Assembly (NCBI GenBank): GCA_014905635.1 | Contig: JABVCE010000029.1 | Span: 124,001 to 188,000 of the forward strand | DNA: 64,000 nt | Direction: 5' to 3' | From: Scenedesmus sp. PABB004 | Taxonomy: Eukaryota | Shown: one piece after another, positions 14,444 through 62,750 of the stretch | How the letters are laid out: each line of letters opens with the position of its first letter | How positions within the stretch are numbered: the stretch's first letter is position 1 | Translations under genes and position numbers: made by a program | The notes under the pieces: model-generated | Database searches by the model: none | What the model was told of the DNA's origin: nothing | The model's input: the letters and a program-made list of their open reading frames with translations, nothing else

Positions 14444-14608
14444 GGCAGGCGCTGCTGTGCAGACGCAGGCGGCAGCAGCGCCGCGCGCGGTGGTGCGGGC
14501 GCGGTGCGGCGCCGGGGCGCCTGGCGGCCGTGCCGGGCCGGGAGCGCTCGCAAGGGCGCGGGTGGGCGACAGGCGGAGGCGCGCTCTGGGCGGCGCTGAT
14601 CGGCGCGC

Positions 14609-15206
14609 GGCGCGGGCGGCGCAGGCGGCGCGCTGCGGCAGCTCGCGGGCCGTGCGGGGCGCAGGGCGGGGTGCGGGGCGCCGATCGGGCTGCGGCCGGT
14701 CGCCTGGCGCGCTGCAGCGCTGGTGCGGGCAGCGCGGGCGCGGCGCGTCATGTTTTTCGAACACGTCGGCGGCGGCGGCAGTCGCTGCCCCCCTGGCCCG
14801 CAGCCCACACCCGCCCGCCGGCACCAGCACGCCGCGCCTGCACGCCAACCGGCACGCGCCGCCCCGATCACCGCCGCCGGCGCCTGCCGCTGCTGCGCAG
14901 GCGCGCCCCGCGCCGCCGCACCAGCGCTGCCGGGGCCCCAGGGCCTCCACAGGCGCAGGCCGGCGGCGGCCCTCATGCGCGGCGCGCGGCACGCGCGGCC
15001 GCAGCGGCCGGCGCGCTGCGCGCGGACGCGCAGCAGCAGCAGCAGCGGAGCGGCGGCAGCGCGATGCGGCGGAGCGCGGAGGAGCACCCGCTGGTCGCGC
15101 AGGCGTGGCCATGAGCTTTGCCCCGCGCCACGCCGCCGCGGCGCTGGCGGGCTTCGCGGCCGCGGCCGCGGCCGCGGCCGGCGGCGGCGACGCGGCGCGC
15201 CTCAGC
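14609..15206 (+). repeat. Direct repeat copy A of the RecQ upstream region and first codons (~600 bp)
   Basis: Aligns by eye with 22936-23519, e.g. the shared gcgcgtcat(g/c)tttttcgaacacgtcggcggcggcggcagtcgctgccccc block. Confidence 0.9.
15064..15206 (+). pseudogene. Truncated, frameshifted copy of the RecQ N-terminus
   Basis: MRRSAEEHPLVAQA, then a 1-nt deletion, then MSFAPRHAAAALAGFAAAA..GGDAARLS, versus RecQ MRRSAEHHPLVAQAVAMGFAPHHAAAALAGFAAAAAGGDASRLS. No helicase sequence follows. Confidence 0.7.
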
Positions 15207-15923: not shown

Positions 15924-18900
15924 ATGAGCCGGCAGAGCCGCGCCAGGGCCATGGCCCGGCGCTGGCTGGCCGCGGCGCAGCTCCTGCTGCTCGTCCTGGC
16001 CGCCTCGGCGCGCTCGCACAGCGGTGAGCGCGGCGGCCGCTCGCTTCCCTGCTGCTGAGCGCCGGGCCAGGCCTGGGGCTGAGCGGCACCGCCGCCGCCG
16101 CCGCAGGCGCCGCCGCAGGCCGCCGCACGCTGCTGCAGCAACGGAGCTGCCCGGAGGGCTGCGCGACGACGCCCGGCGCGTGCGTCCCCGACGGCTCATC
16201 GGGCGGCTTTGTCTGCCTTCAGTGCGTCGACAACCGCGTCCCGGCGGCGGACGGCAGCTGCGGTGGGTGCCGCGGCGCGCCGGCGCGCTGCGCACCCCCC
16301 CCCCCCTCCAGAAAAGAACGGCTGCAGCGAGCCCGCCCCCTGCCGCCCCCGCCTGGCAGGCTGCTCGCCGGGCCGCGTCCTCAACACCAGCACGCGGCGC
16401 TGCGACCTCTGCGCCACCGGCAGCTGGTGCCCCGGCGGCGGCGAGGTCCAGGCCGCGTCGTCGACGGCGTGCGCCGCCGGGCTGACCACGCGCGCGCCCG
16501 GGGCCTCGTCGCGCGCCGACTGCGGTGAGCCCGCAGCCGGCGCTGGGCAGCGCGCACGGCGCCGGTCAGCGCCCGCGCGCGCGGCTCACCCGCGCACGCC
16601 GCCCCCGCACGCAGTCAACGCGCCCGGCTACAGCTTTGGCCTGGATGCCAGCGGCGCGCCCAGCGCGACGCCCTGCCCCGCGCACTCATACTCGGTCGGC
16701 TACCTGCGGCAGCCGCGCTGCACGCCGTGCGCCAGGGGCCTGCGCACAAATAACACGGGCGCCGACACCACGCGCACCTCTGCGGCGGTGTGCCGTGAGT
16801 CGCCGCTGGCTGCGAGACGCGCGCGCGCGCGCGCGCCGGCCGAGCGGGGAGGCGCAGCAGCCTGCCAATCGCAGCGGGCGCCGGCCGAGCCCTCCTGCCT
16901 GCGCCGCGGCCGCGCCGCAGTGGTGCCGCCCGGCCGGCGCTGGGGCGCCGGCGCGGCTGTCCGCTGCGCACGCGGCACGTTCCGCGATGGCTGGGCGGTG
17001 CCGAGCGTGGATGCTGCCACCTGCGCGTCGTGCCCCACCGGCACCACGACTAACGGCACTGGGAGCACAAACTGCGCAGGTGAGGGGTGCAGCTGGTGCA
17101 CCGCTGCGCTGCGCTGCCGGCGTGCCGCCGCCACGGCCACCAGCGCGGGCGCGAGCACTGCACTCCCCCGGCTGACGGCGCCGGCCTGGCGCGCCCGCAG
17201 CTGTCACGGTGGGCTTTTATTGGCTGAGCGCCACCACCGTGGCGCCGTGCCCGCTGGACAGCTTCTGCCCCGGCTCCACGCTGCCGCCGGCGCCAGGCGT
17301 TGGCAGCATCACGTGCAGCAGCATCCGCGCCGGGCTGCGGACGCAGGCAACGGGGACGAGCACGTCCGACGGCTGCCGTGAGTGGCGGCGCGCCGACGGC
17401 AGGGCGCGCCGGGGCGCCGGCGCTGGCGGCGGGGGGCGCGTGGGTGGGCGCATGTGCCAGGGCGCGCTCGACACGCCGCCCTGCCTGCCCGCCCGCTCAC
17501 TGTCGCGCGCAGTCATCCCGCCGGGCTTCGGCGTGACCAGCGGGGTCGTGAGCCAGTGCAGCAATAACGTTGGCGGCCAGGGCTTTTACCAGCCAAGCTG
17601 GCTGCCCGGCAACTCCAGCGACGCGTGCCAGGCGTGCGGCGCGGGCATTCTGTCGGAGAACAGGGAATCCAGCGCGGTGCCCGGCGAATCGGCAATCCTG
17701 CTGCCCCGCACGTCGGCGTCCTGCTGTGAGTGCACACGCACGCATGCACGCTGCTGCGGCCAGGGCTGCTGCTGCCGCTGCTGCGCGCCATGCCTCATGC
17801 CCGCCCGCCTGCCGGCCGCGCAGACATCACGGGCGGGCAGAGCGTCGTGTTGTCGAGCGTGCTCGAGGCGGCGATGCTCATCAACCCCACGCCCCCCGTC
17901 CGGGCGGCGACCTGCAACGGCAGCACCCAGTACAGCACAGTGAGCTCAAACACCAGGCAGTATGGCCTCAACCTCACGCGCTGCGGCGAGTGCACGCGCG
18001 GCACGTTTGTGCTCGCCCCCAACGCCACTGGCAACGTCGGGCTCGCGTCGTGCAGCAGAGTGACGGCCGGCTTTGGCTACGACCCGGCCGCCAGCTCGCT
18101 CGTCACGGCGGTGGCCAGCACCAAGCCCTGCCCAGGTGCGGCTCGCGGGCAGCTGGGGGCGGGCGGGCGGCGGCAGCTTGGTTTGGCGTGTGCGCGCGTG
18201 ACGCCCGCCGCACCGCCCGCCCGCCCCCCACCGCAGCCAACAGCAATAACCCCAACGCGACGCTGCCAATCACCGTCAACGGCACGAGCTGCACGTGCGT
18301 CGCCGGTACGGGCAGCTACTCGTTCGCGGCCGGCTGCTCCGCGTGCACGGACGGCACCTTCAGCACCGGCGGCAGCACGGCGCCCTGCACATCGTGCGGC
18401 CCCAACGCCGGCGTCAGCGCCCTGCCGCGCACGTCGTCGGCCAACTGCACCTGCAGCGCCGGCTACGCCACCTACGCCTCACCCAGCAGCGGCTGCACAC
18501 AGTGCGCCACGGGCTTCGGCCGTATTAGCGCCGTCGGCGCCAGCCCCATCAACTGCACCGCGTGCACCGGCTCCCGGACCACCGCCGGGCCCGGCACGAA
18601 CGACACCTCGTTTTGCTGTGAGCGCGCGTGCTGGCCCGCCCGCCCTGCGCGCTGTGCTGCGCGCGCCCTGGCCGCGCCCTGGCCGCGCCCTGGCCGCGCC
18701 CTGGCCGCGCCCTGGCCGCGCCCTGGCCGCGCCCTGGCCGCGCCCTGGCCGCGCCCTGGCCGCGCCCTGGCCGCGCCCTGGCCGCGCCCTGGCCGCCCCC
18801 TGACCGCGCCACGCGCGCCTGCTCGCGCAGGGTGCCCCGCCGGCACGGGCGCGCTGCTCACGGGCGGCACCTGCAGCGACTGCGGCATCGGCAGCTGGGG

Positions 18901-21564
18901 CGCGTTTGACGCCACCGACCCGTGCGTGCAGTGCGTCGCGCCGTCGATGTCGTTTGTGTTGTTTGGTATGGTCAACCCCGTCGCGCTCATCACGACCGCG
19001 GCGACGCGGTCGACCGCGAGCACCGACTGCGTGCGCGGCGTGCTGTCGAGCCCGACGGGGATGACCGTCACAACCGTCACCAGCGCCACCACGGTGCAGT
19101 TGTGCGCGACCGCGTGCTCTAACAGTGGGTGCGCATACTTCACCTACAACCTGGCGACGGGCGCGCCCGCCACGGAGCAGGGCGCATCGGCCGTGACCAA
19201 CTGCCGCCTGCACAGCGTCAACGTCGCGGCCATGAACGACACGTGCGCGGCTCGCGCGCGTGGCCGACGCGCGGCTGGCTGGCCAGCCGGCGCTGCTGGC
19301 GCCCCGCACGCGCCTCCGACGCACACGCCGCCGCCCTGCCCCCTGTGCTGCTCTCCTCTACTCTCCGCCGCAGGTTCCGGGTGGCGTACAAGCTCTCCAA
19401 CAGCACCACCTACTCGTGGTGGCGCCACGTCGCCAGCCTCGACGCCGCCAGTATCGGCGGCCTCCCGCTGGCGACGGCCAGCGGCAGCACCGTGACGCAG
19501 TGCCTCTCCGACTGCAGCGCCCAGGCGGCGTGCGCGGCGGTGCTGCTGAACAGCGCAAGCTGGACCACGCCCACGAACGTCGCCTGCACCCTGGTCATGG
19601 GCCAGGTGGCCAATGCGACGCTGCCCGCGGACCGCACGCTCCTCGCAAACATGGCGCCGACGGCGTCCAACGCGACAGCCCCGCTGCCGTCGATAGGTGC
19701 GTGTGCTGGCATGTGTCTGGCTGGCTGGGGGGCTGGCGGCTGCACGCGCCGGCACACCTCGCCGCCGTTGGCGCCAGCGCAAGCGCACGCCACGGCTCCT
19801 CCCCTCCCCTCCCCTCACGTTCTGACCCACGCGCCGCCACGCCGCCACTCCTCCTTTCCGCACGCGCGCAGCCAACATCGCGCCGAACTTCACCCTGGCG
19901 CAGTCCAACGTGACGGTGCTCGAGGACGCGGGGGCGCAGAGCGTGCCCAACTTTGTCACAAACGTGGACCCGCGCAACCCCGGCCAGAGCATTATCAATG
20001 CCACGATCACCTGCACCACCAACCCGTCGGGCCTCTTCTCCGGCGGCGCGCCGCCGGCGCTGGCGGCCAACAGCGCGAATGCAGCCAACTACGACCTCAC
20101 CTTTACGGCCGGGCCCGACGCCAACGGCGCGGCGAGCTGCACTGTGACGGTCACGGACGACGGCGTGGGCACGGTTGGCGGCGCAGCGAGCGCGACACAA
20201 ACCTTCACCATCACCGTCATCTCAGGTGCGCGCGCGCTCGCGCACACGCACTGACAACGCGCGCGGCGCCCGCGCCTCTCGCACGCCCGCCCCGCCTCTC
20301 TTGCACGCCCGGCCCTGCCCCGAGCGCTGCTCCCCAGCCGCCGCTGACGTACCCCCCCCCCCCCGCCCTCTGTGTCGCCGCCCCTGCTCGCGTGCGTGCG
20401 CGCAGTGAACGATGCGCCGAGCTATGTCAGGGGCAGCGCCTGGACCGCGAGCTCGACGTATCGGCTCCTGCGAAGCTCGGTGAACATCAGCACATCAGTA
20501 CAGTCCTTTGTCACCAACGTCACCCGCGGCGCGGCCAACGAGGGCGGCCAAGGCCTGACCTTTGTGGTGACCAACAACAACAACGCCCTGTTCAGCCCAA
20601 CCGGCCAGCCGGCCATCAGCTCTCCCGGCGTCGGCGTAACTACCGCCACGCTCTCGTTCACGCCGTTGGCTGGCGCAAGTGGCTCGGCGACGGTCACGGT
20701 GGTGCTGCAGGACGATGGCGGCACGGCCAACGGCGGCGTGGACCGCACCGTCGCGCAGACCTTTGTCATATCTATCGGTGAGCTCCGGACAGGGCGGGCT
20801 GTTGACTGCTGCAGCGCGCGACGGGCGCGCACGGCGCACCGGGGCCCGCATGTTCCGCGACCGCGCCACACCCACCTAAGCACGCACTGCACGTGCTCGC
20901 CCGCCCTGCAGGCGTGAGGTACCCTACGAATTTCAATATCACACTCGACCAGCTGCCTGGAGGTACAAACCAAGCCACCACCGTGGTCGAGGGCACCGGC
21001 TACCCCCTCACCAGCTTGGTACCCCCCATTAGCTACTTTTACTACCTCTGGGGCGCGACGACCCTCACGGCCGGCGACGGGAGTTCAAACGGCGGAGGGC
21101 TTTACGTCTTTCGGACCATCGGCGGCTCCGACTACGCCCTGGGCTCGCTCCCCAAAAACAATGCTCAGTTCAAGTACGGTGTGGCCGTCAACAACGCGGA
21201 GACCTGGACAGCCGGGCGCGCGGAGGTCACCTTCACGCTGGAGACGTGGCGCACCGGCAGCCAAAAAGACAACGTCACGGTTGGGCTGGCCGTGGTGGGG
21301 ACCGCCCCCCTGGGTACCACCCCGCCCGCACTGTTTCCCGGGACGTCGCAACCCATCGAACCCGCGGGCGCTTCTACTTCAACACGTGCCGTCGACGGCA
21401 ACTCGGCCGCCAACAGGGTGACGCAGACCATCAGCGGCCCCATCAGCGCCACGGGCGGGTCGCGCGTTATGCTGGTCGTCTCCGACGCCAGCTCCGGCAA
21501 TGGCGGCAACGTCAACTTTGGCACCGCCGTGGACGACCTCGTCTTTGTGCTCTACCCAGTGTGA
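15924..21564 (+). CDS. Large secreted Cys-rich repeat protein with PAN/Apple-like modules, two bacterial-type cadherin/Ig-like repeats and a C-terminal beta-rich domain; dispersed member of the array family
   Basis: Signal peptide MARRWLAAAQLLLLVLAASARSHS (start at 15924 or 15951). GRRTLLQ, then CPEGC..ACVP..GGFVCLQCVDNRV..DGSC as in the array genes; CxxGxY/CxxCP repeats; CATACSNSGCAYFTYN and YSWW..QCLSDCSAQAACAAV (PAN-like); VTVLEDAGAQSVPNFVTNV...FTITVISVNDAP...LQDDGGTANGGVD. Confidence 0.8.
18663..18794 (+). repeat. Intronic minisatellite (GCGCCCTGGCC)x12
   Basis: Perfect 11-bp tandem units filling most of a GT-AG intron. Confidence 0.92.
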
Positions 21565-23387
21565 GGCTTCAGCCTCAAGCGTGGGCGCGGCGCCGGCCGG
21601 GCGCGCGCGCCGCGCGCCCCCCGCCAGCACGGGGCGGGGCGGGGGAGGAGGCGCCGCGAGCGCCGCTGCGGTCGCTCGATCGGCGCCACCCCGGCCTGAC
21701 CGAGGCCGGCTGTGTGTCAGCGTGTGTGTGAGTGTGTGTGTGTGGGGGGGGGGAGCTGCTGCATGACACCTGCCGCCGCCGCCGCTGCGGCCGTGGCCGC
21801 CGCCCGCGCGTGTGGCCGCGCGTGCGCTGGGCGGCGCGGCTGGGCTTGCAGTTGGGGGCGCATGGCGGCGCGCCTCGGTGCGCGCGCGCGAGCCGCCGTG
21901 CTGGTGGCTGGCTGTCTGCTGCGCGTCGCGGCAGCGCACACCGCGCAGGGCAGCCCTGCTCTGCAGACGCCAAAGGCCCACGCACCGCGTTGTGCGCGTC
22001 GCTCGGGCCGGGCGCGCTGAGCGCGCGCGCTGAGTGCGTGCCCGCCGCTGGCCGCCGCGCTGCGCCGCGCCGGCGCGCCGCCGCCATGCGTGCTGAGCTG
22101 AGCTCAACCCTGGGCTGACGACTGACGACTCGCTTCCTTGTCTTCTCACCGCCTCTCGTGGATGCATGCTTCCCTCTCTCTCCTCCCCGGCCTTGCGCCG
22201 GGGGGCTGGGCTTAAGTTTGGCGCGCGCGCGCTCTCGCGCACGCACGCGCGGGGATGGGGACTGGGGGATGGGGGACAGGGCGGGGCTGAACTGCATCTA
22301 TCTATGTCAGGGTGGGGGAGAGGGCGCGCGCCCGTATCGCGCGTGACCCACTTGCCGTCCTCAGCGGCGGCCTTGCTTGCTGCTGTGTGTATGTGTGAAG
22401 GGACGGTTGCGCGGCGTCATGCGACGCGCGCCGTGCTGCCCGCGCCGCATGACCAGTGGCCGCGGGTGAGCAGGGAGAGGGGAGGGCGACATAAAGTGGC
22501 CATCGCTGCCTGGCTGGCTGGCTCTCGAGCCTGCCAGCCAGACCTGCTGCCGCTGTGCTTGGCTCCATCCATCCACATCTCAAACCTCCATGCTCCAGTT
22601 TTGTCGCAGCTTCGCAACGAAGCGCCTCGTGACCCGAACGAACACAACACTGACTGCCTGGGAGTTTCTCGGGCTGAGTTTCTGGCGCACCTTGTGGGGA
22701 TGATGATGCACTGCAGCACTGGTATCGCGCCTCCAAGGCGCCGTGCAATAAACAGAGCCCACCGCAGCACCGCCGCGCGCTGCGCGCTGCGCCGCCGCCT
22801 GGCCGGCGCCCCGGGCAGCGCTGATCAGCCCCTGACCAGCCCTGGCAGCCGCGGGCATTGGTGCACCCCGACGGCGGCGTGGGCACGGACGCAGGCGTCC
22901 CGCGCGCTGCAGCGCGCCGCGCCCGTGTGCGCGCTGCGCGGGCGGCGCAGGCGGTGCGCTGCGGCAGCTCGCCGGGCCGTGCGGGGCGCAGGGCGCGCTG
23001 CGGGCGCGCCGATCGGGCTGTGGCCGGTCGCCGAGCGCCCTGCAGCGCTGGTGCGGGCAGCGCGGGCTCGGCGCGTCATCTTTTTCGAACACGTCGGCGG
23101 CGGCGGCAGTCGCTGCCCCCCTGGCCCGCAGCCCACACCCGCCCGCCGGCACCAGCACGCCGCGCCTGCACGCCAACCGGCACGCGCCGCCCCGATCACC
23201 GCCGCCGGCGCGTGCCGCTGCTGCGCAGGCGCGCCCCGCGCCGCCGCGCCAGCGCTGCCGGGGCCCCAGGGCCTCCACAGGTGCAGGCCGGCGGCGGCCC
23301 TCATGCGCTAGGCGCGGACGCCCGGCCAGCGGCGGCCGCAGCGCGGCGCGCGGGACGCAGCAGCAGCGGCGGAGCGGCGGCAGCGCC

Positions 23388-28562
<5,175 letters not shown>

Positions 28563-37000: not shown

Positions 37001-37853
37001 GGCGCGGCGGGCGCGGCGGGCGGGTCGGGGCGCCGCGCGGCCGCGCGCGCGCGCGGCGGCGGCGGCGGCGGCGGCCGGGCCGGCAGCGCCGCGGCCGGGC
37101 GCTGCGCGGCGCGACGCACGGCAAGAGGCGATGGTCGCGGGCGGTGTCCCTGCCCGGGGGTTTGTGCGCAGGCCCGCCGGGCATGCGGTGCAGTTCTGCT
37201 GCTTGAGCAGCCCTGGCGTGTACGTGTCGGCTGGGCACCTGCCCCCGCCCGGCCGGATGGTGGTTGGGGGGTCAAGGTAGCGAAATCCAGGCATGTTGAC
37301 TGCGGGGCGGGCAGCAGCAGCGCCGGGCGTGAGGGCGACGGCGGCGCGCCCGGCCGCGCCGCACGCAGCACGCATGGCGCGCATCGCCACGCACTGCAGT
37401 CGTCAAAGCTCGACGCGCCGGGCTCCAGTGTGGTCAGGCCGACGCTTTGGGGGCCGTTGCACTTGGCAGGCGGAATCAGCCCGCCGCGGCAGATGCTGGC
37501 GATCGGGCAAGTCACGCACGCTCCAGTCGTATTGACATAGTAGCTGCCCGGCGCGCAGCCCACCGGCTTCTTCAGCAGCCGCCGGCCCATACCTGCAAAG
37601 AGGGCGGCGCGGCGGCGGCGGTGAGCGGGCGGCGGCTGGCGGTGCGGCCGCTCGCCCGCGGCGCCCGGCCGCTGCTGCTGCCGTGCGGGCTCAGCGCAGC
37701 CCGGCTGCCTCGCCGCTCACCGCCTATCGACAGTCCCGCCGCCCCATCGCTCGACCAGCCGCCGCCAGCCGCCGCAGCGACGGCGCACGCGAGCAGGGCG
37801 AGCACGAGCGCGCGCCGCGCCGCCGCGGCGCGCGCCGGCGCGAGGGCGGCCAT
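34053..37853 (-). CDS. Secreted Cys-rich repeat / PAN-like protein, array member 1 (leader type A)
   Basis: MAALAPARAAAARRALVLALLACAVAAAAG|GMGRRLLK; CAPGSYY, CPADTYTPGL, YQPLW, SYGLISLPCLPC, GGFSSPEAC, NPFSP, CLAEFA, CQFVTFSY, MGSGAFSWW, CTEAPTCAAV. Confidence 0.8.
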
Positions 37854-38440
37854 GCAGGCGCGGCTACGCGGTCACGCCGCCATCGCGCCACCCGTGGCTG
37901 CCGTGGGCGCGGTCGCGGCGACGCCCACGCGGCAGGAGTGGGGCAGAAGCGGGCGAGGGCGGACCTCTCGGCGCTGCCCGGCGCGCCGGCTGGCCCCGCG
38001 GCGCCCTGCGCAGCACGAGTGCGTCTATCGGGCTTGGGGCTAAGCTCCGGGCAGCACGGTCAGGTGCGTGGAGGGCGCTCGCCGCAGCGGGCTGGCCCGA
38101 GGAAGGCGGCTCCGGGCGGAGCGTGGGGGTGCTGCGCGGGTACGGCGAGGCGTCGTGGGCGTCTGTGGTGATGGCGGGACGCTGTGGGCGGCAGCGGGCG
38201 TCGCCGCGTGCTGCCAGCCGGGCGGGCGGCGAGCGCGCGATGCGGCGACCCGCCCGGCGAGCTGCCGGCGCCGTCGAGGGCCGCGCGGGGGCGCGCGAGA
38301 GGGACGCGGTGACCTCATTCTGCGAACGCACCGGCGCGCCGCGCGGATCGCTGCCCCCCGGCGCCGCGCCGGCGGCGGCACCGGGGCGCGACGCGCGCGC
38401 TGCTGGGCCGGCGGCGGCGGCGCAGGGGTGGGGCCAGGAC
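37592..38440 (-). repeat. Upstream region + signal-peptide exon + first intron, copy 1
   Basis: Near-identical to 53031-53890. Confidence 0.9.
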
Positions 38441-39071
38441 CTGTGCGTTTGCTGCACAGCAGGGCCCGGTACACTCCGGGAGGGTGAGCGGCTGGCCGGG
38501 TGCGCGAGGCGCTGGCTGCCAGCGAGGGTGGCGCGCAGCGCGGCGCACACCGCGCGGGAAATGTTCTGACCGCCAGATGGAGCGCGCGCCACGCCAGGTT
38601 ATTACCGTCCCGGCGCACAAGGGAAGGAAGGTATGCGGATGAGGAAGGAAGCATAGGTATTCGTTCATAAGTGTACGTGTACGTGGATTCGGGGCTGCCC
38701 CCACACACAAAGGTAAGCGCAAGCCAGGCGGCCTTACTTGCCCGCGCGATTATTCCAGTGCTCGCACGGCGGGCCCAGGCGCCAGCACGGTGTGGTGCCG
38801 CAGGCGCCCCAGACCAGGGCACGTACACAGCGTATTGTGTGCGTGCGATAGGCTCGAAGCAATAGACTTTGAAGGCCCCCTGCCGCCTCTGCCCCCCCCC
38901 CCCTGCTCACTGCATCTGGCGCCGCTGCCCCGCCTCGGTTTGCCGCCCGCCCCGGCCCAGCCGGCGCCGGTTCGTGTGTATAGACACAGTCAGTCGGCAG
39001 CAGCGCCGCTGGGGCCTCGACCCGGCCCCTGCGCCATGTGGTGACTGGTTGCGCAGCCCCCGCGCCCGCGC

Positions 39072-42000
39072 TCACGCCTTGAGCGCCTCCGGCTCGCTGT
39101 TGGCGACCGTGCGCAGCAGCGAGCGCCACGGGCTGGTCTGCACGCCCGCCGTGCCGCGCAGAAACATGCAGCGGACGGGGTTGGAGTCGGTGTGCACCTC
39201 GCCGTCGGGGAAGAACACGGCGGCGCAGTCGGGCGAGCGCGCGCAGTACGCCAGGCACTGCGTGGGCGACGCCTGCTCATACATGCCCTTATCGCCAGCC
39301 GTGACGCCCTTGACCACCTCCTCGCCGGCCATGGGCGTGCCCGCGGAGTCGCCGGCCTTGTCGGCCCACCAGCTGAACCTGCCGGAGCCCTGGTCGGCGG
39401 GCGCGGCGGACGCGCGGCGCACCAGGCCGGAGCCGGGCATGATCTTTAAGGCCACAAGCGGCAGGCTGCGGGACGCACGGGGAGGGGGGCGGGGGGCGTC
39501 AGCGCGGGCGGCGCGCGCCGCCGCTGCGTTGCTGCGCCGCCGCCGCCGCCGCCGCCGCCACCCGCGGCCTGGTGCCGCGCGCGCGCGCGCGCGCGCTCAC
39601 CCCTCGTTGCCCTCCGGCCGGCCGCCGTCGACCACGCGCAGGAAGCACTCTGTGGTGGCATAGTTGTACGAGACGTACTGGCAATAGTCCTGCTTGGAGC
39701 AGACCTCTGTGCATTTCTCGAGAGACATCTCCCCAGCCCCCTTGAGCCTGTCGACCTCAGGGTTATCGTTATTGTTGAGGAACCACTTGCCGTTCGCGAC
39801 CTGCGCATAGCCGACCAGGCACTGGCTGGGCTGCACCGCGCCCTCGGGCGACGCGGGGTCGCTGGAGAAGGGGTTGTTGGTGCCGCCGTAGTTGAAGGTG
39901 TACACGTTGGAGGGGCCGGCGCAGGCCACGCACTTGGTCTCCCCAGCGTCACGCCAGTTGGGGCCGTACGTGCCGCTGGGGCAGGGCTTGCAGTCAACCT
40001 TGTTGATGTCCTCACTGCCCCAGCCGGCGGGGCAAACTGCGCGCGGCGGCAGCGGCGGCGGCGGGGCGCGCCTCGGTGTCGGCGTGGCGGCGGCGGCGCG
40101 GCGGCGGCAAGGGCGGCGGCCATGGCACGCTGCGAGCGCGTGCAGCGCGCTCACTGGAGCACTGGGTCGCGTCAGACGCGCCCACCACGCCCGGCAGGGT
40201 GGCACTGGACATGGGGCAGGGTTCGCACGGCATCTCAGCGCCTGAGTCAAACTTGCGCTCCTTGTCAGCATACGTGTCTGCGCAGCAGGCAGGGGCAGGC
40301 GCCGGTGCTCAGTGCCAGCCGCCACGGCCTCGCCAGCGTGCGCGCGCGCGGGCGCCCGTGCGGGGACCCCCCCTCTCTCCCCAAACACACACACACACAC
40401 ACACGCACACAGCAGGCAGCGGCACACGCCCCTGCGCGCGCAGCAGCACTCACTCGCGCGGCAGGGGGCGACGACAAAGCCCTCGTCACCCTTGAAGCTG
40501 CCATAGCCAGCCTCTAGGAACCTGCAGCCGTCAGCGCTCATGCTGCTATCGCCCTCCGTGGTGGTGCCGTCGGCGCAGGCCTTGCACTTGTCGGCGGGTT
40601 CGGTCTTGCCGTCGTTCCAGGAGCCCTTGGCGCAGAGCGTGGCAATGGCGCCGGTCATGCCCCAGCCGGCGGGCACGGCGCACGCGTCCGCAGAGGCGTA
40701 GCCGCCAGATGCTGCCGGCTTGCTGTCCTTGGTGGTGGTGCCCGCGGGGCAGGACCTGGGGGCAGGCGCGGGGCGGCGTGCGCGAGGTGCGCAGTCGTGG
40801 GCGTGGCGCTCGCGGGGCGCCTGCGCGCCCGCAGCTGCACACGCCGGCGCCGGCGCGGCGGGGCGCGCGGTGCGGCGGGCTCACGTGCAGGGCGTGGCGA
40901 CGAGGCCGTAGGTCCTCTTAGCAGCACCATAGTTGTTGCCGTCGCACGTCAGGGCCTCAAACACGGGCTTGCCGGCGCCCGACACGGAGGCCTGCACCAG
41001 GCCCTGGCCGGGCTCAATGTCTGCGCGCGGTGCGGGGCAGGCGCGCGTCGGGTCGGGGCACGCGGGCGTGCCGCCGTGCAGCCGGCGCCCGCGCAGCACA
41101 GCGTGGTGCGGCCGGTGAGCCGGCGCGGAACTCACAGCACGAGGCGGAGGTGCGGCGAACCAGCTGCAGGGTCTCCTTCACCGTGCCGGTGATAGGGTTA
41201 TCCACCTCAACCTTGGACAGGGGCTCAACCGCCTCCGACTTGACGTCCGCGCCGCAGGGCGTGCAAGTGACGGTGGGTGTCTCCTTGGTGGGGCGCACCC
41301 AGTCGGGCTGGTAGGATGTCTCGTCACACTCCTTGACCTCCTTGCTGTCAAAGCTGTAGCCCGGCGGCACCACTGCGCGGGCGCGGCGAGCGGCGGCGAG
41401 CAGCGGTGAGCGGCGCGGTGCGGATGCCTGCTGCTGCCGGGCAAGCCCCGCCGCGCCGCGCCCCGCTGCGTCAGCGACGACGCCCGCGCGCGGCGCCACG
41501 CACTGCAGCTGGTCTCGCTCTTGGCGCCGACGGAGCGCGTCCACATGGCGCCGGGGCACTGCTTCTTGTCCGCACTGTCACCGCCCGGGCAGAAGAAGCC
41601 CTGAGGGCACAGCGCGGGGGTGCTGCCATCAAGGTAGTAGCCGGGCAGAATCTCTGGCGGGGAGGAGAGGCGAAGAGGGCAGAGGGCGTGAGGCGGGGCG
41701 GGGCGCCGCGCGCGTGCAGGGCCTCGAAACGGCTGTCTGCCTGCGCGCGCGCGCGCGCGCCGCCGGCTCACCAGCACAGCCGGACGCAGTGCCCAGCCCG
41801 CTGGTCGTGCTGCCGGGGGCGCACTTGGTGCACTGGGCGGCCTTGCGCTCGCTCGGGGCCAGGTAGCCGTCACGGGTCTCGCCCCTGGGGCAGGCCTGGA
41901 CACCGGAAGAGGCCGTCCAGAAGTAACCGGGCCTGACGACTGTGAGTGTGTGTGTGGGGCGGCAGGGGGGGGGGTGAGGGCTGCTGCACGCAGCCACGCA

Positions 42001-43956: not shown

Positions 43957-44133
43957 GCCAGTGCCGCTGCCCTGCCGCCTCGCCCCGATGCTGCGCCTTT
44001 GCCCCAGGCCCATGGGCCTGGCCAGCCGGCGCGTGCGTGTGCAAACACGCAGTCAGTCGCATCAGCGCCTCCGGGGGCGCGATCCGGCCGCTGCGCCATG
44101 CGGCGACTGGTTGCGCAGCCCCCGCGCCCGCGC

Positions 44134-47100
44134 TCACGCCTTGAGCGCCTTGGGCTCGCTGCCGGCAACCGTGCGCAGCAGCGAGCGCCACGGGCTGATC
44201 TGCACGCCCGCCGTGCCGCGCAGAAACATGCAGCGGACGGGGTTGGAGTCGGTGTGCACCTCGCCGTCGGGGAAGAACACGGCGGCGCAGTCGGGCGAGC
44301 GCGTGCAGTACGCCAGGCACTGCGTGGGCGACGCCTGCTCATACATGCCTTCCCCGTCTGTTGTGACGCCATTGACCAAGTCAACCTTGGCCATGCGCGT
44401 GCCCGCGGAGCCGCCGGCCTCATCGGCCCACCAGCTGAACCGGCCCGACCCCTGGTCGGCGGGCGCGGCGGACGCGCGGCGCGCCAGGCCCGAGCCGGGC
44501 ATGATCTTGAACGCAACCAGCGGCAGGCTGCGGGACGCACGGGGAGGGGGGTGGGGGGGGGGGGGGGGTCAGCGAGGGCGGCGCGTGCTGCCGCACTGCT
44601 GCGCCGCCGCCGCGCCGGCCGCGGCCTGGTGCCACGCGCGCGCGCGCGTGCGCGCTCACCCCTTGTCCTCGTAAATCGCCAACAGGCCGCCGGCGGCCAG
44701 GCGCAGCCAGCACTGCTTCTTGGAGTAGTCGTAAGAGACGTACTGGCAGTTTTCTGCTTGGTCAGTGCAGATCTTTACGCACTCGTCGAGATTGCCGTCC
44801 TTGGCAACAAGCTTCAGCCGCGGGTCGGCCTTGGGGTCGGCAGTCAGGAACCACTTGTCGTTGACGACCTGCGCGTAGCCCACCAGGCACTGGCTGGGCT
44901 GCACCGCGCCCTCGGGCGACGCGGAGCCGGCACGGAAGGGGTTGTTGGTGCCGCCGTAGTTGAAGGTGTACACGTTGGAGGGGCCGGCGCAGGCCACGCA
45001 CTTGGTGTCCCCGCCGTTGCGCCAGTCGGGGCCGTACGTGCCGCTGGGGCAGAACTTGCAGTCAACCTTGTTGATGTCCTCACTGCCCCAGCCGGCGGGG
45101 CAAACTGCGCGCGGCGGCAGCGGCGGCGGCGCGGCGCGCCTCAGTAGCTGCGCGGCGGCGGCGCCGGCGCCGCGGCGACCAGGGCGGCGGCCATGGCACG
45201 CTGCGAGCGCGTGCTGGTGGGCCGCTCACTGGAGCACTGGGTCGCGTCAGACGCGCCCACCACGCCCGGCAGGGTGGCACTGGACATGGGGCAGGGTTCG
45301 CACGGCATCTCAGCGCCTGAGTCAAACTTGCGCTCCTTGTCAGCATACGTGTCTGCGCAGCAGGCAGGGGCAGGCGCCGGTGCTCAGTGCCAGCCGCCAC
45401 GGCCTCGCCAGCGTGCGCGCGCGCGGGCGCCCGTGCGGGGACCCCCCCTCTCTCCCCAAACACACACACACACACACACGCACACAGCAGGCAGCGGCAC
45501 ACGCCCCTGCGCGCGCAGCAGCACTCACTCGCGCGGCAGGGGGCGACGACAAAGCCCTCGTCACCCTTGAAGCTGCCATAGCCAGCCTCTAGGAACCTGC
45601 AGCCGTCAGCGCTCATGCTGCTATCGCCCTCCGTGGTGGTGCCGTCGGCGCAGGCCTTGCACTTGTCGGCGGGTTCGGTCTTGCCGTCGTTCCAGGAGCC
45701 CTTGGCGCAGAGCGTGGCAATGGCGCCGGTCATGCCCCAGCCGGCGGGCACCAGGCAGTCCTCTGCGGAGGCGTAGCCGCCAGACTTCTGCGCCTCGCTC
45801 TTTGCGGTGGTGGTGCCCGCGGGGCAGGACCTGCGGGCAGGCGCGGGGCGGCGTGCGCGAGGCGCGCAGTCGTGGGCCTGACGCTCGCGGGGCGCCTGCG
45901 CGCCCGCAGCCGCACGTGCACACGCCGGCGCCGGCGCGGCGCAGCGCGCGGTGCGGCGGGCTCACGTGCAGGGCGTGGCGACGAGGCCGTAGGTCCTCTT
46001 AGCAGCACCATAGTTGTTGCCGTCGCACGTCAGGGCCTCAAACACGGGCTTGCCGGCGCCCGACACGGAGGCCTGCACCAGGCCCTGGCCGGGCTCAATG
46101 TCTGCGCGCGGTGCGGGGCAGGCGCGCGTCGGGTCGGGGCACGCGGGCGTGCCGCCGTGCAGCCGGCGCCCGCGCAGCACAGCGTGGTGCGGCCGGTGAG
46201 CCGGCGCGGAACTCACAGCACGAGGCGGAGGTGCGGCGGACCAGCTGCAGGGTCTCCTTCACCGTGCCGGCGATAGGGTCGTCCACCTCAACCTTGGACA
46301 GGGGCTCAACCGCCTCCGACTTGACGTCCGCGCCGCAGGGCGTGCAAGTGACGGTGGATGTCTCCTTGGTGGGGCGCACCCAGTCGGGCTGGTAGGATGT
46401 CTCGTCACACTCCTTGACCTCCGTGTTGTCAAAGCTGTAGCCCGGCGGCACCACTGCGCGGGCGCGGCGAGCGGCGGTGTGAGCGGCGGTGAGCGGCGCG
46501 GCGCGGATGCCTGCTGCTGCCGGGCAAGCCCCGCCGCGCCGCGCCGCGTCAGCGACCGTGCCCGCGCGCGGAGCCACGCACTGCAGCTGGTCTCGCTCTT
46601 GGCGCCAACGGAGCGCGTCCACATGCCGCCGTTGCACGCTTGCTTGTCGGCCTTGGGGCCGCCCGGGCAATAGGAGCTCTGAGGGCACAGCGTGGGGGTG
46701 TTGCCGTTGCTGCCATCAAGGTAGTAGCCGGGCAGAATCTCTGGGCGGGGAGGAGAGGCGAAGAGGGCAGAGGGCCAGGCACGGCATGAGGCGGGGCGGC
46801 ACAGCGCCGCGCAGGGCCTGGCAGCGGCTGTCTGCCTGCGCGTGCGCGCGCCGCCGGCTCACCCGTGCAGTCGGACGCAGTGCCCGGCTTGCTGGTCGTG
46901 CTGCCCACGGGGCACTTCTCGCACTGGGTGGCCTTGTCGTTGCTCGGGGACAGGTAGCCGTCACGCGTCTCACCCCTGGGGCAGCGCTGGGCGCCGGAGG
47001 AGGCCGTCCAGAAGTAACCGGGCTTGACGACTGTGGTGCGTGCGGTGGCGGAGAGGGGCGGGGAGGGCATGGGGGAGGGGGGGGGGGGGGGGGGTTGAAG

Positions 47101-49016: not shown

Positions 49017-50133
49017 TCATGGCAGCGGGTTGTCGGCTTGGGAGGGGCGCGTGCGCACGAGCGTGCGCTGCGGGTTGCCCGCGGTCGACTGGCCCTTGAC
49101 GAGCGTGCAGGACGCCACCGCGCCGGACGCAACGCCGAAGCGCACCGCCGCGCACGCGGGCGCGAGCGTGCACGCGTCGAGGCATGCCGACACACCCCGG
49201 AACGTCGCCGGCTGGCCCTCGCTGACCGCCATCGGCACGCCGACCTGCCCCGGCGCGTCGTCGCGCCACCAGCTGAACACGCCGGTCCCGTAGTCGCTCG
49301 GCAGCGCGGCCGCCGCCGCCGCCAGGCCGGAGATGTCGGCGACCACCTTGAACGCGATCAGGCTCCTGCGCGCCCCGCAGCGGGCGGGCGGGCGGGCGGG
49401 CAGGCGTTGGCGCGTGCGCGCTCGGACGCCGCGCGGGGGCGGCCAGCCGGGGAAAGGGAAGAGGGGGAGGGGGGCAGCCGCGGCGCCGCGCCCCGCGCCG
49501 CGCGGCCCACCCGCTCGTGCCGGGCGCCGGCGCGCGGACGGCGCAGGTCTGGGTTGAGTAGTCGTACGTCAGAAACTGGCAGGACGCCCCGCACGCCGCC
49601 ACGCACGCGTCCAGGCTGGGCGGCGCGGCGCCGGCCGGCACTGCGGTCATGCCCGCGTCGTTGACCCTGTTCAAGAGCCAGTTGCCGTCAGTTATCTGCG
49701 CACGGCGCGGTGCGGCGCGGCGCGGCGCGGCGGGGCGGGGCGGGGCGGGGCGGGCTCGCGACCGCGCGCCCGGGGCCGCGGCGCGCGCCTGCCCGGCCGC
49801 CCACTGGCCCCCGCGCCGCGGCGGCAGGCGCGGCTGCAGGCGCGGCGGCGCGGCGGCGCGGCGCGCGCCTGTGCAAAGCCGGGCATGCACTGCCCCGACT
49901 CCGACGCGCCGGCGGGGGACACGGTGGGCGCGAGGTAAAAATTATTGCTGCCGCCCCAGGGGAAGCGGTAGAGCGCGGCGCCGGCGCGGCAGGCGATGCA
50001 GGCGAGGCCGGACGTGTCGGTGCCGTTCCCGGTCAGCCCCGGCCGCGTGTCGGGGCCGTAGGTGTTCTCGGGGCAGGGCAGGCACGTCGTGCTCGGCGAC
50101 TGCACGCCTGTGCCAGCCGGGCACGCTGCGCGC

Positions 50134-50185: not shown

Positions 50186-53100
50186 GGTGGCCGTCAGGCG
50201 CGGCGCGGGCAGCGCGCGCAGCGCGTGCGGCGCGTGCACGCCGGCCCAGGCCCCCCCTCTCTCCCCATCGCGCGCGCTCACAGTCGCACTCCGCGGCGCT
50301 GGTCGCGCCGTCGTCGCTGCTGGTGCGGCCGCCGGGGCAGGCCGTGCAGGGCTGGTCCGCAGAGGTGTCGATCACGCGACGGCTGTCGGCATACGTGCCT
50401 GCGCGGGCGCGGGCGGGGCGCGGCAGCGCTCGACCGTCAGCGCAGGCGGGCCGCAGCAGCGCGCGTAACGCCGCGCAGCGCCAGCTGCGCGCGCGCACCG
50501 GCGGCGCAGGGCGCGATGCTGCTGCGGATGGCGGCCGTGCTCGCGCCGCCGGCCGGGCGCACGTAGCCATAGCCCGCCACCACCCAGCGGCAGGCGTCCG
50601 CCGACGTGCCCCCGCTGGTTGCTGTCGGCGGGTCGCTCGTCGTGCCGTCGGGGCAGGCGGTGCACTGGCCCTGCGACCCGTCGCCCGGGTCGTTGTAGGT
50701 GCCCTGGGGGCACGGCATGGCCTGCCCGTTGAACAGGCCCCACCCGGGCGGCGTGTCGCAGGCCAGGGGCGACGTGAAGCCGCCGGTGGCCGGCTCGAAA
50801 AAGTAGCGCGCCGGGGCGGTGCCCGCGACGGCGAGCGTGGCGGTGGCCATGCCGGGCGGGCAGGAGGCGCAGGGGAGGGCGGTGAGCCCGTAGCTGTCCC
50901 CCGACACGCCGTAGCTGCCCTCCCCGCACGTCACCGCGCGCATCACGGGCTGCGCCGACCCCGGGTCGCTGTCCTGCAGCAGCCCCTGCCCCGCGCGGAT
51001 GTCTGCGGCGCCGCGGCGGCGCGATACGGCGCGAGCGCGTGGGTGCGTGCAGCGCGACGCGCGCAGGCGGACGTGCGCGGCGCGCGCCGGCCACGCGCGC
51101 TCCGCGCGGCCCCCGGCGGTGGCTCACAGCAGGAGGCCGAGCTGCGCGACACGAGCTTCACGCCGGTCGGCACGCGGTCGTCGGTGCTTGCGCTGTCAGC
51201 AAACAGGGCCACCGGGTCGGTGGCGCCCGCCATCACGCCCACGCCGCACGCCCTGCAGGCCGCGGCCTTGGGGTCGGCCGGCGCCAGCCAGTCGGGCTGG
51301 TACGTGCCCCAGTTGGCTGGGTCGCTCGCGTCGCCCGCGCCGGCGCGGTTGACGCACTGCGTGACCTCGCCGCCGGACGGCAGGAAGTGGCCGGGCGGCA
51401 CGACTGCGGCGGCGCGGGAGGGAGGGCGGGAGGGAGGGGGGGGGGGTCAGCGCGCCACGCCGCGCGGCGCGCGGCCAGGGGCGCCCAGGTGGTGGTGCCA
51501 GCGGGCAGGCAGGGCCCTGCGAGGCGGCGGCGCCACTCACGGCAGTCGGAGATCTTGATCGTGCCGCGCCCCCGCGTCCAGAGCCCGCGCGGGCACGCGA
51601 CGCGGCCGCCGCCCTGCTGCGCGGCGGGGGGCTGCGCGCCGCCGGCCAGCTGCGTGCCGGCGCAGTAGAAGCCCTGGCTGCACAGCCAGGGCGCCAGCGC
51701 CGCGGCCTGCCCCGCCGACGGCGGAGGGCCCCAGAAAAAGCCGGGCAGCAGCACTGCGGCGGCGGGGCGGCAGCGCGGTCGGCGCGGTCAGCGCCGTCGG
51801 CGAACCCCCCCCAGCGCGCCCGACAGCGCGCTCGGCAACGCCCGCAAGGCCTACCTGTGCAGTCGGCGGCCGTCGTGCTGCCCGCGCTGACGGTGTTCAC
51901 GCCCGACTGGCAGGGCGTGCACAGGATGGCCACGCTGCCCGGCGTCGCCCAGCCGTCCCGGAACTCGCCGCGGGGGCACCGAATGGCGGCGCGGCCCCAG
52001 TAGCGGCCGGGCGCGACCTCTGCGCGCGGTGGTGGTGGGGTGAGAGAGAGAGTGTGTGTGTGTGGGGGGGGGCGCCGTGCGCGCGCGCGGCCCGCCGGGC
52101 GCGGCGCGGCGCGCGCGCGCGCCGCCACTCACTGCACACGGCCACGCTCGTGCGGCCGGTCACGGGGTCGGACGGGTCGGTCCGCAGCCCCGCGGAGCAG
52201 GGCGTGCAGGCCGCCTGGCGGCGCAGCCCCGGGGAGAAGGTGTTGGCGGGGCAGAGCGCCGCGGTGTGGTTGGTGCCGGTGAGGCCGCCGGTGCCCACGG
52301 GCGTGGTGTCAGGGATGAAGTAATAGCCGGGCTGGTTCACTGCGGCCCGGGCGAGGGGGAGATGCGAGGCAGGTGAGACGGCAGGTGCTGCAGCGTGGCG
52401 CGGGGCGTGGCGTGCGCTGCGCAGCGCGCTCACCGCACTGCGCGCGCGCCGACGCGCGCGACCGCAGCGTCGTCAGGCCAAACGTCGACGGCGTGCCGGG
52501 CGGGGGCGGGGCCGTGTCGCCGTTGTAGTTGCAGGCGTACCGCCGCGACGCCGCCTGCGTGCCGCCGGGGCTGCGCGGCCGCGGCGGGGGCGGCGGCGGG
52601 CGGCGTGGGCCGCGCGACGCGCAACGCGGCGGGCCTGCGCCAGGCGCCGCTGCGCCCATCGCGCGCCCCGGCAGCGCTGCTCGGCGTGCCCCGGCAGCGC
52701 ACCAGTAGCTGCCGACTGGGCAGTCCTCGCAGGCGGATGAGCTGTTGAGGAAGCGGCCGGGCCGGCAGCCTGCGGACGGTCACGGCGGCGACGGCGGCGC
52801 AGCTCAGCACCCCCCTCCCCTGCTTTGGGCCCGGGCGGCAGAGCGTCCCGGGGCCGGTGCCGACGCTGGGCGGCGCCGCGCGCGCACCGCAGGTGCCGTC
52901 GACGGCGGGGGCGCGGCCGTTGAGGCAGTTCGTGCAGCGTATGATGCCGGTAAGGATGTCGAGCGCGCACGCGGCGGTCGCGCAGCCGTCTGGGCAGGTG
53001 ATGTTTTCCTGCAGCAGCCGCCTGCCCGCGCCTGCAGGAGGGGGCGGCGCAGCGGCGGCGGTGAGCGGGCGGCGGCTGGCGGCGCGGCCGCTCACCCCCA

Positions 53101-53293
53101 GCGCCCCGCCGCTGCTGCTGCCGTGCGGGCGCAGCGCAGCCCGGCTGCCTCGCCGCTCACCGCCTATCGACAGTCCTGCCGCCCCATCGCTCGACCAGCC
53201 GCCGCCAGCCGCCGCAGCAACGGCGCACGCGAGCAGGGCGAGCGCGAGCGCGCGCCGCGCCGCCGCGGCGCGCGCCGGCGCGAGGGCGGCCAT
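49017..53293 (-). CDS. Secreted Cys-rich repeat / PAN-like protein, array member 4 (leader type A)
   Basis: MAALAPARAAAARRALALALLACAVAAAAG|GAGRRLLQENITCPDGC; NQPGYYF, FSPGLRRQAACTPC, GTYQPDW, SYGLTALPC, GGFTSPLAC, CQFLTYDY, DYGTGVFSWW, CTLAPACAAV. Confidence 0.82.
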
Positions 53294-53890
53294 GCAGGCG
53301 CGGCTACGCGGTCACGCCGCCATCGCGCCACCCGTGGCTGCCGTGGGCGCGGTCGCGGCAACGCCCACGCGGCAGGAGTGGGGCAGAAGCGGGCGAGGGC
53401 GGACCTCTCGGCCCTGCCCGGCGCGCCGGCTGGCCCCGCGGCGCCCTGCGCAGCCCAGGTGCGTCTATCGGGCTTGGGGCTAAGCTCCGGGCAGCACGGT
53501 CAGGCGCGTGGAGGGCGCTCGCCGCAGCGGGCTGGCCCGAGGAAGGCGGCTCCGGGCGGAGCGTGGGGGTGCTGCGCGGGTACGGCGAGGCGTTGAGAGC
53601 CTCCTTGATGGTGGCGGGACGCTGTGGGCGGCAGCGGACGTCGCCGCGTGCTGCCAGGCGGGCGGGCGGCGAGCGCGCGATGCGGCGACCCGCCCGGCGA
53701 GCTGCCGGCGCCGTCGAGGGCCGCGCAGGGGCGCGCGTGAGGGACGCGGTGACCTATTGCGGCGAACGCACCGGCGCACCGCGCGGATCGCTGCCCCCCG
53801 GCGCCGCGCCGGCGGCGGCACCGGGGCGCGGTGCCCGCGCGCGCTGCGGGCGGGCCGCCGGCGGCGCAGGGGGTGCGGGGCCGGGCCTGG
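53031..53890 (-). repeat. Upstream region + signal-peptide exon + first intron, copy 2
   Basis: Near-identical to 37592-38440. Confidence 0.9.
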
Positions 53891-54573
53891 TGCGTGTGTA
53901 ATAGACGTTTCCTGGTGCACTGGTGGCGATGTGCGCGTGGCCGGGCGGCGGAAGGGCTGGGCTGGGAATGGCGGCAGCGCCGGCCTGGGGCTGAGGTGAG
54001 GTTTTACCGTCCGTCTGCGGCAAGGAACAATGATCAGCCTCTGCAAAAAAACGCGGACTCGGGGGAGTGGAGTGGAGCGTACGGGGCTCGAGGCTGCTGC
54101 TCCCGTGCACAAGGCAAGGCGCCACAGCGGGCCTTATTGTGCCCGCGCGCCGTTATTCACGCAGTTTGGCGCGGGGCCATGCGCAGCACCGCAGCGGGCG
54201 CGCCCAGCACGCCCCGCAGCAGCGCGCCCAGCGCGTTGCGTTGCGCTTGCTGCGCGGCGGCGCCGGGCGCGCCCCACACCAGGGGCACGTCCGCGTGCGT
54301 GCAATACAGACTCCAAGCACCGGCCTGTGATCAAACTGCCCCCCGCCGCCGCGGCCAGCCCGCGGCCCCGCCCGCCCCCGCTGCCCCGCCCGCCCCCCGC
54401 TGCGCCGGCTCAGTGCATACGTGTACAAACGCGCAGTGTGTGACCGGCAGCAGCGCTGCCCTGGGCCCGCGGCCCGGCCCATGTGCTGTGTCGGTAGTCG
54501 TAGAGTCGTTGCCGCGCAGCGCGCCCCGTGCCGTGGCGCAGTGGTTGCCCCCCCTTTCCCCCCTTGGATTGTC

Positions 54574-59783: not shown

Positions 59784-59817
59784 CACCAGCACACGCGGCG
59801 CGCCGCGGCCGGCGCGC

Positions 59818-62730: not shown

Positions 62731-62750
62731 ACGCGCTGCGGCCGGCGCGC

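Follow-up and report, generated by a model that had tools for sequence, protein, structure and literature searches.

How do domains of a kind that bacteria build into their large surface adhesins come to lie, one per exon, in an intron-bearing gene of a green alga? The question is raised by a stretch of 64,000 nucleotides from Scenedesmus sp. PABB004 (GenBank assembly GCA_014905635.1, contig JABVCE010000029.1, positions 124,001 to 188,000 of the forward strand), which we call the window and to which, unless stated otherwise, coordinates refer. On its plus strand lies a gene for a cysteine-rich protein that closes with three exons, exon A, exon B and a terminal exon. An initial annotation had read the first two as cadherin-like repeats of the bacterial tandem-95 type, acquired horizontally and shuffled into an algal Cys-rich protein. 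Our answer is that the locus is probably one gene for a secreted mosaic protein, onto which exons of bacterial type were grafted by exon shuffling; as to the ultimate source of the added domains, we lean towards bacteria, through horizontal transfer. To the two exons noticed at the outset we add the terminal one, which, judged by its alignments, is a third and different bacterial-type domain that the initial annotation had missed.

The nature of exon B is the most readily established. Compared by phmmer with 1.84 billion representative proteins, it returns 6267 matches at E<=1e-3, of which 835 reach E<=1e-30. The best of them are proteins of 800-7000 residues with up to 38 matched stretches, 39-58% identical to the exon. 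Those that carry names are Verrucomicrobiota and Proteobacteria proteins from metagenome-assembled genomes, a 'gliding motility-associated-like protein' and a VCBS/FG-GAP protein of Chryseosolibacter histidini. Among 162 proteins that were fetched, 161 show a match to exon B and 158 one to exon A, with best single-domain scores of 81.2 and 50.8 bits, respectively. Eight matched proteins (P0035, P0056 and P0118 among them) have Pfam Big_9, Cadherin_5 and Cadherin_4 domains exactly at the residues that exon B matches, and in these same eight the repeats adjoin FG-GAP, He_PIG, CHU_C and similar adhesin modules. One of the fetched proteins, P0007, is a tandem-95 repeat protein according to NCBIfam (648 bits, for a cut-off of 90), and it carries Pfam Cadherin and RTX repeats too. 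With each prokaryote species represented by one genome, a scan yielded 75 exon B-like loci, 39-60% identical, the titles of which name at least ten phyla.

The likeness extends over the whole domain. Forty bacterial segments, 43-56% identical to exon B, can be aligned with it from its VNDAPS start to its QTFxIxV end; what sets the exon apart from the bacterial consensus is chiefly a pair of insertions, one of 8 residues and one of 6. The exon has the NDAP start, the DDGGTANGG loop and the terminal F.I of the family columns; where at least 80% of the 40 bacterial rows agree, it keeps 35 of 41 columns, and exon A 21 of 41. In the resulting alignment (A1), 28/42 rows match Big_9 and 16/42 match Cadherin_5 at E<=1e-3, and a protein atlas places exon B next to Big_9/Cadherin_5 clusters with a score of 0.97. 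The domain class that the initial annotation had named finds its justification in these rows of A1, and in P0007, a true tandem-95 protein. Exons A and B are paralogous (33% identity over 112 residues, E 5e-10), and a tblastn search of the whole window with both, at E<=1e-3, recovered these two copies and no third, in line with the remark that no other member of the local gene array has them. On these alignments, then, exon B is a putative domain of the bacterial Big_9/Cadherin_5/tandem-95 class, and exon A a more degenerate copy of it. Single-sequence phmmer searches of the Protein Data Bank (PDB) with exons A and B gave nothing significant, the Pfam scan of exon B itself no family at E<=1e-3, and PADLOC and PHROGs scans nothing useful. 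We also observed that exon A has two cysteines, against a mean of 0.05 in the 40 aligned bacterial domains, which may reflect an added disulfide; N-glycosylation sequons (three in exon A, two in exon B, a bacterial mean of 2.2) give no signal.

Prediction of the fold goes in the same direction. Supplied with the 42-sequence alignment, AlphaFold2 predicts for exon B a seven-strand sandwich (pLDDT 87.2, pTM 0.80); from the single sequence the prediction is poor (pLDDT 44). Aligned with representative structures, the model reaches Z values of 6.8-8.7, and the best 50 rows include 29 EC domains of the cadherin family and three cadherin-like modules of SraP, these cadherin and SraP rows lying at Z 6.8-8.0. 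The best PDB sequence match of the family profile is C-cadherin EC4, over the whole EC domain, at E 0.017. The classical Cadherin family (PF00028) has no match at E<=1 in exon A or exon B.

The terminal exon tells a parallel story, with a family that has no name. It finds no match in Pfam, in NCBIfam or, by single-sequence phmmer, among PDB sequences, and neither a homologue search among longer proteins nor the metagenome scan matched it. A six-frame search of five bacterial genomes did produce a relative (E 9.5e-5 per genome, residues 51-211): the N-terminal domain of a secreted protein, 1165 residues long, that also contains Big_5 and Endonuclease_1 (genome G004, locus L154, positions 1375-1986 of that locus). 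BLASTP aligns the two at 27% identity over 168 columns (E 2e-6), and a profile built from 30 bacterial segments gives the terminal exon 41.5 bits, when the best of 1000 shuffled sequences reaches 7.1. The bacterial domain is itself devoid of any Pfam or NCBIfam family annotation. It is present in 54/201 genomes of one gammaproteobacterial order, often in several copies, in frames of about 300-3300 residues; among genomes of the bacterial class, 1/300 is matched by the algal query and 1/300 by the bacterial domain at E<=1e-5. In the protein atlas the terminal exon comes near unnamed bacterial clusters at 0.88-0.89, below the lead threshold. Both families do coexist in one bacterial protein out of the 162 fetched, again P0007, where the unnamed domain occupies residues 60-256 and is followed by 36 Big_9-like stretches. 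Quite apart from the alga, this unnamed extracellular domain of bacteria is a candidate new domain family.

How are these domains placed in the gene? Frame-keeping GT-AG introns were sought by a coordinate-based search, so that the gene model comes from sequence alone. It reads as follows.

About 15951-21564, plus strand: the whole gene, as modelled.
15951..16023, plus strand: exon 1, with the start codon and a hydrophobic, signal-peptide-like leader in the frame translation; best donor at 16024, phase 1.
16362..17081, plus strand: three Cys-rich exons of the Ephrin_rec_like type (Pfam PF07699), separated by introns.
18833..19246, plus strand: exon 10, a Cys-rich stretch and the first PAN-like domain (PAN_1, E 1.6e-3, 18.7 bits, cut-off 21.4).
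19345..19696, plus strand: exon 11, the second PAN-like domain (PAN_1, E 0.09), ending in a phase-1 donor, G|GTGCGT at 19697.
19697..19871, plus strand: intron before exon A, 175 nt, phase 1, GC 0.75 (G|GTGCGT...GCGCAG).
19872..20225, plus strand: exon A, 354 nt, 118 codons with the split codons included, probably one degenerate Big_9/cadherin-like domain.
20226..20405, plus strand: intron between exons A and B, 180 nt, phase 1, GC 0.81 (G|GTGCGC...GCGCAG).
20406..20777, plus strand: exon B, 372 nt, a putative well-preserved Big_9/Cadherin_5-like domain from VNDAPS to QTFVISI.
20778..20911, plus strand: intron after exon B, 134 nt, phase 1 (G|GTGAGC...CCCTGCAG).
20912..21564, plus strand: terminal exon, a 216-residue domain of the second putative bacterial-type family, with its stop at 21562-21564.

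The intron at 20226-20405 is the single frame-keeping GT-AG candidate between exons A and B, those at 19697-19871 and 20778-20911 are the clear best candidates on either side of the pair, and phase 1 is the best candidate in at least nine introns of the gene. With the three flanking introns all in phase 1, exons A and B would be symmetric 1-1 modules, of lengths divisible by three. Met codons are absent from both, and, read upstream from its start, the frame of exon A is closed after 15 codons; the two exons are therefore translatable as internal exons only. Downstream of exon B the frame closes after 216 codons, the terminal exon ending in ...DDLVFVLYPV before the stop, with no long hydrophobic stretch. 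The limits that had been proposed for the repeats proved exact, 19872 being the first base of exon A and 20777 the last base of exon B; the peptides quoted with them are present, and the idea of one domain per exon held as well, each of the two exons encoding what appears to be one complete beta-sandwich domain. As for composition, G+C at third codon positions (GC3) is 0.89 in exon A, 0.83 in exon B and 0.81 in the terminal exon, for 0.82-1.00 in the exons upstream. The window as a whole has a G+C content of about 78%, falling to 0.70-0.74 in the bins of 18001-22000, with a minimum of 0.705 in bin 20001-22000; its open frames are broken by short GT-AG introns.

Related DNA exists outside the sequenced strain. 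Two runs of one freshwater-metagenome study contain contigs 80-99% alike to exons 10, 11 and A and to parts downstream, covering portions of exon B (20377-20476, 20554-20748) and of the terminal exon (21170-21568). The cover is incomplete, some bins of the stretch being empty. A contig of 526 nucleotides spans 19826-20252, hence both splice sites of exon A, with 33 differing letters and 7 gaps, and a second contig on exon A covers 19815-20129. One run has indels of 3, 2 and 1 bases inside exon A, 6 in total. That a related organism has the same exon-intron arrangement around exon A argues against an assembly artefact; it has no bearing on expression. A separate observation concerns several joints of low likeness in the contigs; in one of them, present in one contig of each of two runs (X1, X2), a stretch like the end of exon B is linked to one like the start of exon A (20747 back to 19905, 843 positions backwards, with a short side of 36 letters). 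Such joints may come from unrelated, repeat-derived or chance motif matches, or from an intron-less tandem array in another organism, and we draw nothing from them.

The part of the gene that precedes exon A is the Cys-rich/PAN backbone. Among nine upstream exons scanned for Ephrin_rec_like (PF07699), two lie above the cut-off of 23.1, with 28.3 bits at 16362-16526 and 29.3 at 16920-17081, and the stretch at 16617-16799 lies below it, with 18.6 bits. The two PAN-like exons score 18.7 and 13.0 bits with PAN_1 (PF00024), both sub-threshold for a cut-off of 21.4. Exon 10 shares 52% identity with hypothetical protein HT031_002761 of the same Scenedesmus strain (KAF8066437.1, here P0166), an 811-residue protein with PAN_4 (PF14295), Ephrin_rec_like and PAN_1 (PF00024) domains arranged in three Cys-rich/PAN-PAN units. 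P0166 ends after its last PAN domain, and has neither a Big_9-like nor a terminal domain of the type considered here. The window also holds, on the minus strand, a tandem array of related Cys-rich/PAN genes. Four paralogues of exon 11 (39084-39440, 49020-49289, 59905-60174 and 62838-63107) meet an in-frame stop 0-28 codons past the end of the alignment, and it is at this very position that the studied gene has its phase-1 donor. Since four paralogues stop there and P0166 is devoid of the add-on, the chimeric architecture put forward by the initial annotation stands, and 'grafted' is the correct word for it: as far as the alignments tell, no other member of the array has the extension that the three 3' exons form.

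Other features of the neighbourhood may be recorded here. The minus-strand array, tandem or dispersed, includes blocks with 84-94% DNA identity (38957-41981 with 44022-47068, 59784-60861 with 62717-63824, 37570-38448 with 53009-53895), and the studied gene has no long DNA duplicate of this type. The intron between exons 9 and 10 contains an 11-nucleotide tandem repeat of 13.5 copies (97% matches, 18662-18810), one frame of which reads ALAAPWPRPGR. A block of 580 nucleotides is duplicated about 8 kb apart at 93% identity (14603-15176 and 22929-23502), the second copy preceding an exon near 24.4 kb that has a RecQ-helicase-like motif. The Scenedesmus sp. PABB004 genome, at 78.5% GC, appears as exceptional among Sphaeropleales in a table of PMC12571836.

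We can now propose a course of events. The Cys-rich/PAN backbone, common in the local array and in Scenedesmus, would be the original gene, and its last three exons a later addition. Both domain families would have been acquired from bacteria by horizontal transfer, at some depth in the algal lineage, joined to the backbone as phase-1 modules via exon shuffling, and since then adapted to the codon usage of the host. Exon B sits within bacterial diversity: its end branch in the domain tree measures 0.8, for a median of 0.42, and its identity with bacterial domains (43-56%) is similar to that of the bacterial rows among themselves (mean column identity 58%). Exons A and B as one clade are not rejected (p-AU 0.387), so that one acquisition followed by a duplication, or two acquisitions, are both possible. 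The host-like GC3 (0.81-0.89) implies that any transfer was not recent. Introns may have been gained at domain borders, or the domains may have arrived as exons. Viruses show no sign of having been the vector: among 49 candidate stretches in viral contigs, three are relatives of exon B, the best at 42% identity. As a side observation, a 19-kb IMG/VR contig (locus L189, positions 2465-2782 of that locus) carries a full-length exon B relative, 42% identical. Transfer of a single colinear block was considered too, and is not supported, the algal order (Big_9, Big_9, unnamed domain last) differing from any known bacterial order, where the unnamed domain is N-terminal.

What might such a protein do? 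By analogy with better known systems, we would see in it a secreted protein of the cell wall or extracellular matrix, made of a spacer and a distal binding domain. The two cadherin-like domains would form a short spacer, possibly stiffened by Ca2+, that keeps the C-terminal domain at a distance, as a tip for binding, with the PAN domains adding carbohydrate or protein binding. The account in PMC12153261 describes the Big_9/cadherin-like repeats of RTX/Bap adhesins as extenders rigidified by Ca2+, projecting a C-terminal binding domain, and the cadherin-like domains of Saccharophagus and of RapA2 as Ca2+-dependent carbohydrate binders. In Scenedesmus, PAN/Apple proteins figure among putative wall-material proteins, in connection with carbohydrate binding, in the part of PMC11839794 that concerns them.

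Several facts pull the other way, and they bear in turn on the class, the fold, the gene model, the origin and the function just proposed. The curated cut-offs are not reached: Big_9 (PF17963, cut-off 23.6) gives 13.5 bits for exon A and 15.2 for exon B (E 0.14 and 0.041), Cadherin_5 (PF17892, cut-off 26.5) gives 10.8 bits for exon A (E 0.44), and the tandem-95 model NF012211 of NCBIfam (cut-off 90) gives 12.1 bits for exon A (E 0.14) and nothing for exon B. Lying below these cut-offs, the exons are divergent relatives of Big_9/Cadherin_5 rather than members that Pfam can call; with their divergence and small number, the algal copies do not seem able to satisfy the curated models by themselves. 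A Foldseek search of PDB with the exon B model found no match at E<=1e-3, and weak Ig-like matches only. Z values of 7-8 are in a range common for beta-sandwiches, so that the predicted structure supports a shared fold, and no more. All splice junctions are predicted ones, and at 65-80% GC long open frames come easily. The domain tree is star-like, with 5/39 inner branches well supported and the bacterial phyla scrambled, and hence it names no donor and permits no demonstration of nesting. Of the support that the initial annotation had expected from exon-wise searches followed by phylogeny, the searches brought thousands of matches (bacterial among those named), and nesting among bacterial sequences found no support in the tree. 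The searches for relatives covered prokaryote, metagenome, viral and representative-protein collections, which are not eukaryote-wide. The unnamed domain is N-terminal in 30/30 bacterial loci, and in 0/30 of them is there a Big_9-type neighbour within the locus. Finally, of 15 columns that are candidate Ca2+ ligands (D/E/N in at least 70% of bacterial rows), exon B keeps 11 and exon A 8; with ligands partly kept, dependence on Ca2+ is uncertain.

These points leave room for other accounts, one of which retains the same exons and the same protein, and draws the domains from an older eukaryotic pool, inherited or exchanged among eukaryotes, and shuffled into place within the algal genome with no direct bacterial transfer. 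Every domain does occupy a symmetric phase-1 exon, which is what modules moving as exons should look like; bacteria order the domains differently, the codon usage fully resembles that of the host, and the AU test retains exons A and B as one clade (p-AU 0.387); moreover, the ectodomains of FUS1 and GEX2 in the green lineage are themselves described as built of bacterial-type Ig-like domains (bioRxiv 10.1101/2021.09.03.458930). Yet exon B is about as near to bacterial domains as those of different phyla are among themselves, and four paralogues and P0166 do without the domains. Closer relatives did not turn up in the collections searched either. Among 78 metagenome loci, a collection that is not eukaryote-wide and proves no absence, exon B has no relative above 63% identity. 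Seventy-two short proteins are 36-71% identical to it, the 71% match covering 25% of the query and the best at a coverage of at least 90% standing at 52%, and in this set, again not eukaryote-wide, there is no algal-grade match. On balance we find an eukaryotic pool unlikely, though by no means far-fetched, and continue to prefer grafting of domains that came from bacteria.

Two further accounts question the gene itself. According to one, exons A and B are outside the mRNA of the Cys-rich gene, as decaying pseudo-exons or as part of a separate transcript. The junctions are indeed known from sequence only, and open frames are easily had in GC-rich DNA; but the account sits badly with exons that have no Met, with an exon A frame closed 15 codons upstream, with 35 of 41 conserved columns kept in exon B, with the matching phases of the exon 11 donor and of exons A and B, and with freshwater contigs that preserve exon A and both its splice sites, the indels inside it amounting in one run to 3, 2 and 1 bases, a sum of 6. 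We hold this to be very improbable. The other account, a chimera of assembly or bacterial DNA contaminating an algal contig, takes its appeal from the fact that the closest sequence relatives are bacterial, and deserves next to no credence: GC-rich GT-AG introns, 134-180 nt long, lie between the domains and have donors and acceptors in the style of the rest of the gene, GC3 is like that of the host, bacterial relatives such as metagenome locus L088 are uninterrupted open reading frames of bacterial type, and the borders of exon A with its introns recur in separate metagenome contigs. A single mosaic gene with grafted exons remains our preferred explanation.

A bolder version of this preference can be formulated, in which the alga took over the functional pieces of a bacterial surface adhesin: a pair of cadherin-like extenders, plus the unnamed domain that secreted nucleases and giant adhesins of bacteria carry at their tip. 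Each piece would have become a phase-1 exon, and the whole would have been set upon the native Cys-rich/PAN wall protein. We consider this distinctly unlikely. If true, it would equip the alga with a binding arm in the bacterial style, dependent on Ca2+, which might recognise bacterial exopolymers or DNA in the phycosphere, and it would be a case outside animals of a transfer that can be dated and was followed by exon shuffling and by the gain of introns where domains meet.

Returning to the mosaic gene as we prefer to read it, what does it add to what was known? Bacterial-type Ig-like and cadherin-like modules have already been described in surface proteins of protists and algae, so that finding them in this alga is in itself unsurprising. 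The new points are modest: a strict layout of one putative domain per phase-1 exon, and an unnamed second module. The locus offers a base-resolved green-algal case of symmetric phase-1 exon modules in a secreted mosaic, an arrangement mostly documented in animals, and two of its module families look bacterial. If the splicing and the lineage-restricted distribution are true, it would make a compact model for the domestication of bacterial domains into intron-bearing genes. A further point of interest is the bacterial extracellular domain without a name, which merits a family definition and the assignment of a function.

It remains to set the gene beside the systems that it recalls. With P0166 and the paralogues of the window it shares the Cys-rich and PAN-PAN backbone, and these differ by ending after the PAN domain. 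In the green lineage, FUS1 of Chlamydomonas and GEX2 of plants, which serve in gamete adhesion, are extracellular proteins with bacterial-type Ig-like ectodomains, to judge from the descriptions in bioRxiv 10.1101/2021.09.03.458930 and PMC10602792. The comparison is by description only: as there depicted, they have seven Ig domains of the invasin/intimin or filamin type and are anchored in the membrane, whereas the Scenedesmus protein has two putative cadherin-like Big_9 domains and no visible anchor. Metazoan cadherins provide another point of reference. The algal exons have no Pfam Cadherin match and keep only part of the candidate acidic columns, and the algal frame has neither a transmembrane segment nor a catenin-binding tail; what is in common with the EC domains of C-cadherin (1L3W), cadherin-23 and the protocadherins is a Greek-key sandwich of about 100 residues, predicted in the alga, and a linker of the NDAP type.

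As for the unnamed bacterial domain of locus L154, the terminal exon aligns with it over about 160 residues, including the motif AGDGS..G..Y.F...ALG...E.WR.G...DGN.AAN...DD.VF, at an identity of 27%; the positions differ, C-terminal in the alga and N-terminal in 30/30 bacterial loci. For the repeated domains the nearest systems are the Big_9/Cadherin_5/tandem-95 adhesins of bacteria, such as P0007 (RTX-type, 4974 residues), P0056 of Chryseosolibacter histidini, and BapP of Pseudoalteromonas tunicata as presented in PMC12153261. Unlike them, the algal gene has two repeats, where bacterial proteins have up to 38 matched stretches; its domains are split by introns of the spliceosomal type and fused to Ephrin_rec_like and PAN domains of eukaryotic style, and its protein is without RTX, CHU_C or any other bacterial secretion signal. 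Like them, it has domains that run from a VNDAP start to a ...TFxIxV end (43-56% identity for exon B), with a predicted seven-strand sandwich and a DDGGTANGG loop, and, in the manner portrayed for bacterial adhesins in PMC12153261, it places after its repeats a different, distal domain at the C-terminus.

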